A DNA stretch of 64,000 nt from a virus (lineage: Duplodnaviria; Caudoviricetes): IMG/VR virus record IMGVR_UViG_3300033121_001571. One strand, given 5' to 3'. Shown here piece after piece: positions 9,400-11,652 of this stretch. The notes beneath the pieces were generated by a model. It was not told the origin of the DNA. It worked only from the letters and a program-made list of their open reading frames with translations, and did not search any database. The first letter of the stretch is position 1, and every line of letters begins with the position of its first letter. The position numbers and the translations under genes are program-made.

Positions 9400-10197
9400 T
9401 TAGTCGCAGTCTTCAGCAACAATTTCTGCTCTTATCTTCATAAGAATCTTACCCAGATGATTCTGACCCTCACCTTTACAGACACCCCAGAAGTTATCTC
9501 CCCACCAATTACCTTCAATTATTCGAGCGTCTCCAGTCTGGAGAAGAAGCTCTCTTAGCATTGGATTTTTGAACTTTTCTCTTACTAGATCTTCCATAAT
9601 GCTAAGCTTTTTAGCATCCCAATCACTTGGTAACTTAGCAGCTGCACCAAGTTTTTTAGCTACATAAGGACTTTGTTGTTCTCTTATCAGATTAATTGTT
9701 TCTTCGTCTGAAAACTTTGATGCTTGGTATGCGTGCTCTACAGAGCGCCAGAGTTTACCGTTGTACTTGATGTTACAAGCATACATGTTAGATAAAAATC
9801 TATAGTTGTCTTTAAATACAGATATCACAGAAGGAGTACATGGTTTTCCTATGTAAATTTGGATGTCAAGGTTAGAGACAGTCTCTATGATGAATTCAGT
9901 TTTCTGAATATCAGAATAAAAAAGCGCAATATCGGTGATTGGTTCGTGTTTTTCGTTCTCTGCGTCTAAAAACTCTATTAAAGCATTTTTTGTGAATGCA
10001 GAAGTTTCTGCAAAACGTTCGGAACGAAATCGACGTGATTTAAGCTTGTATCTAGCACATAGATCTACAACTATGTCTTGAAAACCAAATCCTGCTCTAA
10101 CTAAGCATATAGTGTCATTGGGAAGAGTCTTAACATAAGATTCTATAGATTCAATATCCCTCCACGATCTCTGCCCAAGGAACATTATTTTTTTCAC
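9400..10197 (-). CDS. SLOG (DUF2493/YspA-like) - NADAR (YbiA-like) fusion protein
   Basis: C-terminal FLSNMY, SVEHAYQASKF, REKF, LLQTG, IEGNWWGDNFWG and GQNHLGKILMKIR are NADAR motifs. N-terminal 'FLGQRSWRD' resembles SLOG. GTG start at 10197 avoids the tRNA overlap. Confidence 0.85.
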   Translation of the reverse strand: MKKIMFLGQRSWRDIESIESYVKTLPNDTICLVRAGFGFQDIVVDLCARYKLKSRRFRSERFAETSAFTKNALIEFLDAENEKHEPITDIALFYSDIQKTEFIIETVSNLDIQIYIGKPCTPSVISVFKDNYRFLSNMYACNIKYNGKLWRSVEHAYQASKFSDEETINLIREQQSPYVAKKLGAAAKLPSDWDAKKLSIMEDLVREKFKNPMLRELLLQTGDARIIEGNWWGDNFWGVCKGEGQNHLGKILMKIRAEIVAEDCD

Positions 10198-10199
10198 AG

Positions 10200-10269
10200 T
10201 GCCAGTTAAGAGAATCGAACTCTTCACGAGGTGTTTATGATACACCTTCTCAGACCACTGAAAACTGGC
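10200..10269 (-). tRNA. tRNA-Met/Ile2(CAT) with atypical D arm
   Basis: GGTGT-ATCATAA-ACACC; GAGTTCGATTCTC T arm. Confidence 0.7.
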
Positions 10270-10275
10270 TTATTG

Positions 10276-10347
10276 TGATCCCAGTGGGATTTGAACCCTA
10301 CAACTCCTGTTTGAGGGACAGGTGACTTACCATTTGTCGATGGGACC
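10276..10347 (-). tRNA. tRNA-Glu(CTC)
   Basis: CCTGT-CCCTCAA-ACAGG. Confidence 0.85.
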
Positions 10348-10353
10348 TCACTG

Positions 10354-11020
10354 TTACCAAGTACCTCGCAACCAGTCAGAAAGTCTCCAAGAGTTTCCTG
10401 TGCGATGGTCTTTTACTTGGTCTTCTTGTGTTCTGTAGGTTCTAATCTTGTCGCCTCGCATCCCAGAACCCACTTGATCTTTTCTGTCTTTTTCTTTTTC
10501 TTTTCTAGATCTCTCTAGTTCTTGTTCACTAAGTTTTGCAGCAAGGATCTTGTATGCTGTTGCTTTGTTTTGGTGCTGAGATCGTTCGTTATCAATTCTA
10601 ACTTGAAGTCCTGTTGGTTTGTGAGTCGCTATTACGCAACTCTCAGTTTTATTTCTGTTTTGACCACCAGGTCCCGAACCTCTCGCTGTTGTGATCTCTA
10701 CATCTCTATAATCGAGAGAAAAGTTTGTTTCATCTGAATCTAAGATAGCAACAGTGACTGTAGATGTATGAACTCTACCACGTTTTTCATTTGGTGGAAT
10801 CCTCTGCCAACGGTGTCCACCAGACTCATTTTTAAATATTTCTTTTACGTTTTTGCCGCTTATAAAAAGCTGTACATAACCCGGTCTTGAATCAACGACT
10901 TGACAGTCAAAGACACCTCTTGACAGAGATGTTTGTGTAAGCTTTCATCTGTTCAGACACAAGTGACTTTGCATCATCGCCGCCTTCAGCAGCTCTTATT
11001 TCTAAGATTATTGTTTCCAT
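10354..11020 (-). CDS. Class I peptide chain release factor (RF1-like, lacking domain 1), expressed through a +1 programmed frameshift; about 221 aa
   Basis: Frame 0 is METIILEIRAAEGGDDAK...KRCL, then TGA. The +1 frame continues DCQVVD...ESGGHRWQRIPPNEKRGRVHTSTVTVAIL...GSGPGGQNRNKTES...ERSQHQNK...GSGMRGDKIRTY...DHRTG to TAA at 10354. The gene is missed by the ORF track. Confidence 0.92.
10906..10921 (-). promoter_or_regulatory. prfB-type +1 ribosomal frameshift cassette AAGAGG-TGT-CTT-TGA-C
   Basis: Internal SD-like AGAGG, 3-nt spacer, CUU-UGA-C: the same geometry as the bacterial RF2 frameshift site. Confidence 0.88.
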
Positions 11021-11061
11021 TAGTTTTCAACTCCAACTCTCAGAGTTATGTATTAAAAATT

Positions 11062-11173
11062 TGTAGTTGTGACTAGGTTCGAACTAGTAACTAGAGTCCT
11101 TTCAACTCTAACTCTACCTTGCTTTGTTACACAAGACGTCACGTGAACAAAGACTTGAGTTTACACAACTACA
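11062..11173 (-). ncRNA. tRNA-like RNA with a ~35-nt hairpin inserted in the D loop
   Basis: AGTTGTG/CACAACT acceptor, ACTC/GAGT D stem enclosing CTTTGTT...AACAAAG, AGAGT-TGAAAGG-ACTCT arm, ACTAG-TTCGAAC-CTAGT T arm. Confidence 0.65.
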
Positions 11174-11174
11174 G

Positions 11175-11255
11175 TGCCAGAAGAGGGACTTGAACCCTCA
11201 AGCCTTTCGGCGCCGGCTTCTAAGACCGGTGTGTATGCCGTTCCACCATTCTGGC
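11175..11255 (-). tRNA. tRNA-Leu(TAG)
   Basis: CCGGT-CTTAGAA-GCCGG with a long variable arm. Confidence 0.92.
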
Positions 11256-11582: not shown

Positions 11583-11584
11583 AG

Positions 11585-11652
11585 AGCCCAATCAAGGAAT
11601 TGAACCTTGTCTCTGCTTATGATCGCAGTGTGTTTCCGTACACTAGTCGGGC
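11585..11652 (-). tRNA. Degenerate tRNA (CAT-containing 8-nt loop)
   Basis: GCCCGAC/ATTGGGC acceptor, CTGC-GATCATAA-GCAG, CAAGG-TTCAATT-CCTTG T arm. Confidence 0.55.

Follow-up and report, generated by a model that had tools for sequence, protein, structure and literature searches.

A predicted prfB-type +1 frameshift gate in a phage family of release-factor genes descended from RF1

Introduction

Why should a phage gene that resembles the gene for release factor 1 (RF1) be broken, 37 codons after its ATG, by what looks like the frameshift site of prfB, the gene for RF2? The question is raised by a locus in the 64,000-nt stretch of phage DNA analyzed here (IMG/VR record IMGVR_UViG_3300033121_001571; referred to below as the window). 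The textbook example of autoregulatory recoding is the prfB frameshift. In E. coli, the shift occurs after codon 25 (codon 25/26), in domain 1, at the cassette AGGGGG TAT CTT TGA C. In a 2025 survey covering more than 12,000 genomes, programmed frameshifting was detected in prfB, and no evidence of it was found in prfA, the gene for RF1 (PMC12421855). A 2016 review of recoding listed the RF1 counterpart as unknown and a giant-virus gene of the eRF1 type as the sole viral case (PMC5009743). For RF1 genes, programmed frameshifting is accordingly reported as absent or unknown (PMC12421855, PMC5009743, PMC1586002). We found no published description of a frameshift gate in an RF1-type gene in the literature, which does not prove its absence.

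Results

The interrupted gene is located on the minus strand, with its ATG at positions 11020-11018, and the 3' end of its 0 frame (ORF1) reads GTC AAG AGG TGT CTT TGA C. A preliminary description of the locus had reported this ATG, the 37 codons leading to AAG AGG TGT CTT TGA C, the 184-codon +1 frame (ORF2) with its GGQ motif, and a prfB-type cassette comprising a Shine-Dalgarno (SD)-like sequence, three nucleotides, and CUU-UGA-C. All of these elements were recovered from the sequence, the cassette as AGAGG, 3 nt, and CTT TGA C. The AGAGG at 10920-10916 is a partial SD match of 4-5 nt. A +1 shift at the heptamer would skip the T at 10909, and the next codon read would be GAC (Asp38), from position 10908. 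We refer to this site as the gate.

ORF1 corresponds to the helix-alpha5 region of RF1 and contains the motif EIRAAEGGDDA (11002-10970). ORF2, which matches the Pfam families PCRF and RF-1, corresponds to the remainder of domain 2, to domain 3 with the GGQ motif, and to domain 4. The two frames hit a single prfA model colinearly, residues 3-32 of ORF1 aligning with model positions 113-142 and residues 12-181 of ORF2 with positions 165-336. The 221-residue product obtained by skipping one base matched positions 113-336 as one stretch, was colinear with residues ~108-335 of RF1 (domains 2-4), and aligned without gaps with P0126, an uninterrupted relative. No ATG, GTG, or TTG is present in the +1 frame until 39 codons before its end. 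Thus, ORF2 cannot be initiated by itself, and a split gene is unlikely. ORF2 alone is also not a working factor since the conserved alpha5 motif sits in ORF1. Transcriptional slippage was considered and is unlikely because the run of T is only 3 bases long. Domain 1 of RF1 interacts with RF3. This domain is missing from the phage gene, as had been noted from the sequence: the match to prfA begins at model position 105-113, and the ATG is preceded by an in-frame TGA 3 codons upstream and, further upstream, by a tRNA-like element and then by a tRNA-Leu gene.

Table 1. Positions of the features of the locus (window numbering, unless another stretch is named).
Feature	Position	Strand	Remarks
ORF1, 0 frame	10910..11020	-	37 codons, ATG to P-site Leu codon CTT
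Likely initiation Shine-Dalgarno sequence, GGAG	11031..11034	-	10 nt 5' of ATG, from sequence only
Internal SD-like sequence, AGAGG	10916..10920	-	3 nt 5' of CTT; 3' end 6 nt before TGA
Shift heptamer, CTT TGA C	10906..10912	-	P site CTT 10912-10910, A site TGA 10909-10907
ORF2, +1 frame	10354..10908	-	184 codons + TAA (10356-10354)
Stop-codon recognition loop, GGHRWQRIPPNEKRGRVHTS	10762..10821	-	tripeptide PPN at 10797-10789
GGQ, peptidyl-tRNA hydrolysis motif	10660..10668	-	intact
tRNA-Leu(UAG)	11174..11255	-	upstream, same strand as release-factor gene
tRNA-Glu(CUC)	10275..10347	-	5' end 6 nt past release-factor TAA
tRNAs with UCA and CUA anticodons, L015 phage	L239 3568-3642 and L021 7728-7803

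In the database, this gene is entered as a 206-residue protein (P0002), called from a start in the +1 frame and with an in-frame TGA read as Trp (...NRWKLT...). Thus, automatic annotation both shortens the gene and reads it with the wrong code.

Comparison with release-factor models placed the gene on the RF1 side, in agreement with the RF1-like identity first proposed for it. The NCBIfam scores were 213 and 209 bits for prfA (cut-offs of 400 and 423), 147 bits for prfB, and 92 bits for prfH (cut-off of 166.65), all of them below the curated cut-offs because about one third of the protein is absent. Among PDB chains, those of RF1 ranked first (161-127 bits), followed by mitochondrial RF1 forms (125-116 bits), RF2 (105-95 bits), and PrfH, which had the lowest rank (59 bits). 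The gene does not belong with RF2, as indicated by the lack of an SPF tripeptide and by a prfB score lower than the prfA score. It shares with RF1 the GGQ motif, a decoding loop of the form Q...PxT-like...T, the best HMM and PDB matches, and its grouping in a tree rooted on RF2. It differs from RF1, which has domain 1 and PxT, in reaching half of the equivalog cut-off, in having PPN, and in requiring recoding; in score, domain 1, and tripeptide it falls outside the prfA equivalog. PrfH is a domain-1-less release-factor homologue acting with RtcB2. The phage gene resembles it in the absence of domain 1, in the GGQ motif, and in a size of ~200 residues, but differs in the decoding region and in its score. 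At the window locus itself, the adjoining genes are tRNA genes and a NADAR-domain gene, with no adjacent RtcB gene. We know of no frameshift reported for prfH. Together, these results indicate that the gene is a phage gene of RF1 descent.

The recognition loop of the window gene retains the Gln and Thr residues that surround the RF1 tripeptide, with PPN (in IPPNE) at the PxT position. The replacement of PxT by PPN, noted in the preliminary description, is present in the window but is a minority variant: the 73 frameshifted genes described below have PPT, a canonical PxT, in 42 cases and PPN in 16. Changes in the decoding elements that are the family's own comprise GGxDA for GGxEA, HRW for HRV, PPT/PPN/SPT, and H to Q before TS. 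In one relative (L107), the N-terminal motif is EIKAADAKDL, without the EGG of the conserved alpha5 tip, and the +1 gate is still present. Alignment with E. coli RF1 and RF2 matched Met1 of the phage protein with RF1 E108 and the P-site Leu37 with RF1 W144 (RF2 F161). The gate is therefore located at RF1 W144/R145, equivalent to RF2 F161/K162, in domain 2, and not at codon ~26 of RF2. The two sites are non-homologous, as had been suggested, and the gate is convergent with that of prfB.

Conservation of the gate was assessed in IMG/VR, in which 496 viral stretches matched the gene, the best 80 of the 496 being examined. This set, the window, GenBank huge phages, and two further IMG/VR loci provided 79 distinct genes from phage contigs, 39-71% identical. 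A +1 shift is needed at the same codon, with a CTT-stop gate, in 73 of the 79, and the other six harbor in-frame TGA codons nearby. Thus, the cassette is as described for the window but is not specific to it. Among database matches, the top 120 relatives came from metagenome contigs no longer than 345 kb and were 59-75% identical to ORF2. Nearly all of them had been called in the +1 frame, with proteins starting with GGVFD or GGVFE, which results from the +1 reading of GG GGT CTT TGA N. The GenBank huge phage LR745208 (485 kb) has an ATG followed by 37 codons and then CGG AGG GGT CTT TGA C.

The P-site codon of the gate is CTT in 72 of the 73 genes and TTT in one, although CTT accounts for 17% of the Leu codons elsewhere in the same genes (binomial test, 4e-54). 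At the third codon before the stop (-3), AGG is used in 43/73 genes, versus 12.6% of the Arg codons in the rest of these genes. In 61/73, at least 4 nt match an SD sequence, the commonest arrangement being GGAGG followed by a 3-nt spacer; in this arrangement, the SD ends 6 nt ahead of the stop, as described for prfB (PMC10732093). The gate stop is TGA in 60 genes, TAG in 11, and TAA in two, and the base that follows is C in 51, G in 15, A in 6, and T in one. Since the GC content of the 73 genes spans 0.33 to 0.69, the constancy of the cassette reflects selection at the nucleotide level rather than shared composition. Counting against the cassette, no clear SD was found in 12 of the 73 relatives, and the AGAGG of the window is weaker than the family consensus GGAGG. 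Inspection of five of the loci revealed no second gate, each of them being single-gated.

The six relatives that do not require a shift have their in-frame TGA codons within ~10 residues of the gate position. In three of them, L002, L003, and L004 (LR756501, LR756504, and LR745206), one or two in-frame TGA codons are aligned with Trp residues of uninterrupted relatives. Wider sampling of LR756504 and LR756501 revealed the standard code, with TGG for Trp otherwise; in the 49 kb sampled from LR756504, there were 155 in-frame TGG codons, and TGA terminated 4 of 63 ORFs. The release-factor genes of these huge phages look like cases of gene-specific UGA decoding. In L015 (G001; IMGVR_UViG_3300044957_000763, complete, 478,840 bp), an in-frame CTC TGA CTA replaces the frameshift. 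This phage has tRNAs with UCA and CUA anticodons (Table 1) and a tmRNA, among 64 tRNA-like genes, and uses the standard code in the 60 kb sampled. Members of the family with an in-frame TGA are apparently made by suppression of the stop codon, as judged from these sequences. The occurrence of a frameshift in most members and of in-frame TGA codons in some indicates that synthesis in this family has repeatedly been tied to termination failure.

A tree was built with IQ-TREE, with bootstraps, from 122 sequences comprising the family, uninterrupted short relatives, full-length RF1, and, as the outgroup on which it was rooted, E. coli and Gram-positive RF2. The gene fell on the RF1 side, as the preliminary description had implied. 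All 96 short RF1-like genes form one clade nested among RF1 (support 95/95). The genes on its basal branches either are uninterrupted or have an in-frame TGA. One clade of 76 (support 96/93) contains all 73 frameshifted genes, the three others being L015, with its in-frame TGA, and P0126 and P0186, which are uninterrupted. The gate stop switched at least 10 times on the tree. The simplest reading of this topology is a single loss of domain 1, followed by a single origin of the gate and few reversions. In the large phage clade that carries it, the gate is ancestral.

The SD of the gate is made from the codons of a conserved Arg-Arg-Gly that precedes RF1 W144. This makes it plausible that the gate arose in place, and a graft from prfB is unnecessary. 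Of the two origins first envisaged, an independent one and a graft, the former is in keeping with the non-homologous site, and the latter would not be needed. A search of 185,579 bacterial and archaeal species genomes identified one gated gene among the best 80 matches, the others being ordinary RF1. On such evidence, the family belongs to phages. The sole gated gene among those 80 (L150; Hydrogenophilales MAG NCIF01000008.1, 25 kb) reads GGGGGCAC CTT TGA C, and its contig probably comes from a phage and was binned with the MAG. Two contigs of Patescibacteria MAGs (L186 and L196) encode an RF1 seemingly devoid of domain 1, with canonical TGGxEAA and RGW motifs and no gate.

UAG or UAA gates are found in relatives with identical recognition loops; for example, the loop of L041 (TAG) is the same as that of L031 (TGA). 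A general co-variation between the gate stop and the loop was sought and rejected, loop divergence being 0.185 versus 0.127 at similar overall divergence, without effect. In one pair, L052 and L057, of which one is TGA-gated and the other TAG-gated, 6 of 20 loop positions differ (RVPPTEHKGR versus HVSPTDKNKR), in comparison to 12% elsewhere. This pair may be one case of the loop and the gate changing together and is offered as a lead only. As a weak trend, phages with a TAG gate are richer in TAG stops (16-43% versus 14-22%; one-sided p of 0.007, kinship ignored).

The release-factor gene lies within a tRNA array, the window containing 38 tRNA genes. The close relatives L005-L008 also have tRNA-Leu(UAG) upstream. 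This tRNA is a fixed partner for the closest relatives only: some tRNA is found within 400 nt in 18 of 80 loci, with mixed identities. A 110-nt tRNA-like fold (11063-11172, minus strand; energy z-score of -2.6) is located upstream of the release-factor gene, 43 nt from its ATG. This fold comprises a 9-bp closing stem, a T-arm-like hairpin, an extra hairpin, and, at the position of the anticodon arm, a 7-bp stem capped by a 5-nt loop. One possible role is that of a processing signal releasing the mRNA from a tRNA precursor. An odd tRNA is located at 11584-11652 (minus strand). ARAGORN assigns it a 2-base "anticodon", its fold has an 8-nt anticodon loop, GAUCAUAA, and its score with the Rfam tRNA model is 28.1 bits, for a gathering score of 29. 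Inside the array, the release-factor gene and tRNA-Glu are closely followed by the NADAR-domain gene (9400-10245, minus strand), which encodes a 281-residue protein with the NADAR domain at its C-terminus.

Of the 130 ORFs crudely called in the window, 69 end in TGA, as had been noted in general terms, and TGA accounts for 53-55% of the phage's stops. The phage reads as standard code. Genome-wide recoding of TGA was rejected for the window and its relatives because translating TGA as a sense codon added little coding coverage. No near-identical phage genomes were found among GenBank phages.

Discussion

We propose, with a probability of about 0.8, that this phage gene encodes a 221-residue RF1-derived factor that would be made in full only through a prfB-type +1 shift tied to termination at the gate. 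When the P site holds peptidyl-tRNA-Leu on CUU and the A site a slowly read UGA, the SD-like AGAGG located 3 bases upstream would pair with 16S rRNA, the tRNA-Leu would re-pair on UUU, and decoding would restart at GAC. As frameshifting competes with termination, the yield would depend on the rate at which the gate codon is read, and output of the factor would be expected to go up when UGA termination is slow and down when it is fast. We infer both the occurrence of frameshifting and the coupling of synthesis to termination capacity from comparison of the sequences. The site shares with prfB the slippery Leu codon CUU, the skipped U, an A-site stop with C as the next base, an internal SD ending 6 nt ahead of that stop, and a class-I release factor as the gated gene. 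It differs in that the prfB site controls RF2 and lies in domain 1, whereas the phage genes are of RF1 descent, carry the gate in domain 2, and belong to phages. Both the gene family and the position are new for a prfB-type device. A further difference is that UAG was not detected at the prfB site (PMC12421855), although it occupies 11 of the 73 phage gates.

Because UGA is not among the codons read by RF1, the RF1-like recognition elements (Q, PxT-like, and T) imply that the classic logic of autoregulation does not apply directly to UGA gates. This codon is read by host RF2. In contrast to prfB, the factor reading the UGA gates of the phage genes is probably not their own product. We favor, at about even odds, the reading that the gate cross-senses the load of host RF2 for an RF1-type factor dedicated to UAA and UAG. 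Ribosomes waiting at UGA, because RF2 is overloaded or disabled, would lead to production of more of an RF3-independent, RF1-type terminator for UAA and UAG, and this terminator would relieve RF2 of its UAA load. The basis of this cross-sensing reading is the activity of RF1 without domain 1, which is reported to catalyze peptide release with unchanged codon specificity and to be functional in vivo, without being stimulated by RF3 (PMC1586002). The preliminary description had suggested a backup that senses the loss of host RF2. In its pure form, as a sensor of UGA and RF2, this suggestion fails family-wide because UAG and UAA gates occur with the same loop.

Other explanations of the frame break and of its role were considered. 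Assembly errors most often take the form of a single-base frame break, and the gene might also be decaying. However, the same break recurs at the same codon, with the same heptamer, in 73 independent contigs, from many metagenomes and at 39-71% identity, both frames are conserved as protein, and the cassette is conserved as nucleotide sequence. Neither an assembly error nor a pseudogene can account for this recurrence, and we give such an artefact next to no credence: the break is, on this comparative reading, a conserved programmed +1 frameshift. The gate might then act as a fixed attenuator that senses nothing and keeps the yield low and constant for a factor that could be harmful in excess, a stop codon being the best available pause. 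The preference for the weakest termination context (stop then C), the interchangeability of the gate stop, and the reported harm of release-factor overproduction in bacteria (PMC12421855) would be consistent with this. Nonetheless, a weak promoter or ribosome-binding site would suffice for that purpose, a stop codon is present at 73/73 gates and a rare sense codon at none, and competition with release factors makes the yield follow the rate of termination, prfB frameshifting being increased at low RF2 (PMC12421855). A fixed attenuator is therefore quite unlikely. We also doubt strongly that the protein is a rescue factor akin to PrfH or ArfB, which would free stalled or damaged ribosomes and be switched on when ribosomes queue at stops. 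Like PrfH, it has lost domain 1; its gene is in a tRNA array, such arrays being often tied to host-phage conflict over translation; and a tmRNA is also present in the phages of some relatives. Yet the prfH score is well below its cut-off and exceeded by that of prfA, the PDB chains of PrfH rank last, the adjoining genes do not include RtcB, and the RF1 decoding elements have been kept, pointing to stop-codon reading.

It is also possible, if improbable, that the gate is autoregulatory in the manner of RF2 because the factor has broadened: the short protein would read UGA as well as UAA and UAG and terminate at its own gate. Such a factor would explain the use of three stops at the gate and their swapping between close relatives with the same loop, and the family's own changes in the decoding elements would fit it too. 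As a weak trend, SP[TL] tripeptides were found in 5 of the 13 genes with non-TGA gates versus 3 of the 60 others (Fisher test, 0.0035, kinship ignored), and the phage ends most of its genes in TGA. Against this stand the equivalents of Q181, PxT, and T194, which are RF1-like in most members, and the risk that a factor reading both UAG and UGA would also read UGG. In addition, the ungated basal members already have the same loop, so that the gate did not arise together with a change in the loop. We consider it unlikely, on balance, that the short factor reads all three stops and that every gate variant (UGA, UAG, and UAA) is thus a genuine self-limitation. If this were true, a single RF3-independent terminator would free these phages from both host RF1 and host RF2.

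Recoding of viral release-factor genes has a precedent in Mimivirus and Megavirus, in which a release-factor gene is reported to be expressed via a frameshift and readthrough (PMC3521657, cited in PMC5009743). The giant-virus gene resembles the phage genes in encoding a class-I release factor in a virus and in needing recoding at stops; it differs in being an eRF1 homologue of the eukaryotic and archaeal type, from amoeba viruses, with an unrelated family and unrelated signals. RF1 and RF2 genes have also been listed in huge and stop-codon-recoded phages, where they were tied to genome-wide recoding and no gate was described (PMC7162821, PMC13037316). Those genes are phage-borne and located beside large tRNA sets, as is the window gene, but the window phage uses the standard code. 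As for annotation, gene callers shorten gated genes of this kind or translate them by the wrong code.

The gate described here represents a second, independent origin of the prfB-type cassette, at a different codon, in a large family of phage genes descended from RF1. It poses the puzzle of an RF1-type factor gated mostly by an RF2-specific codon. The answer would be either a circuit by which phage and host termination are cross-sensed or a bacterial-type factor with broadened specificity, which, if true, would also be relevant to genetic-code engineering.
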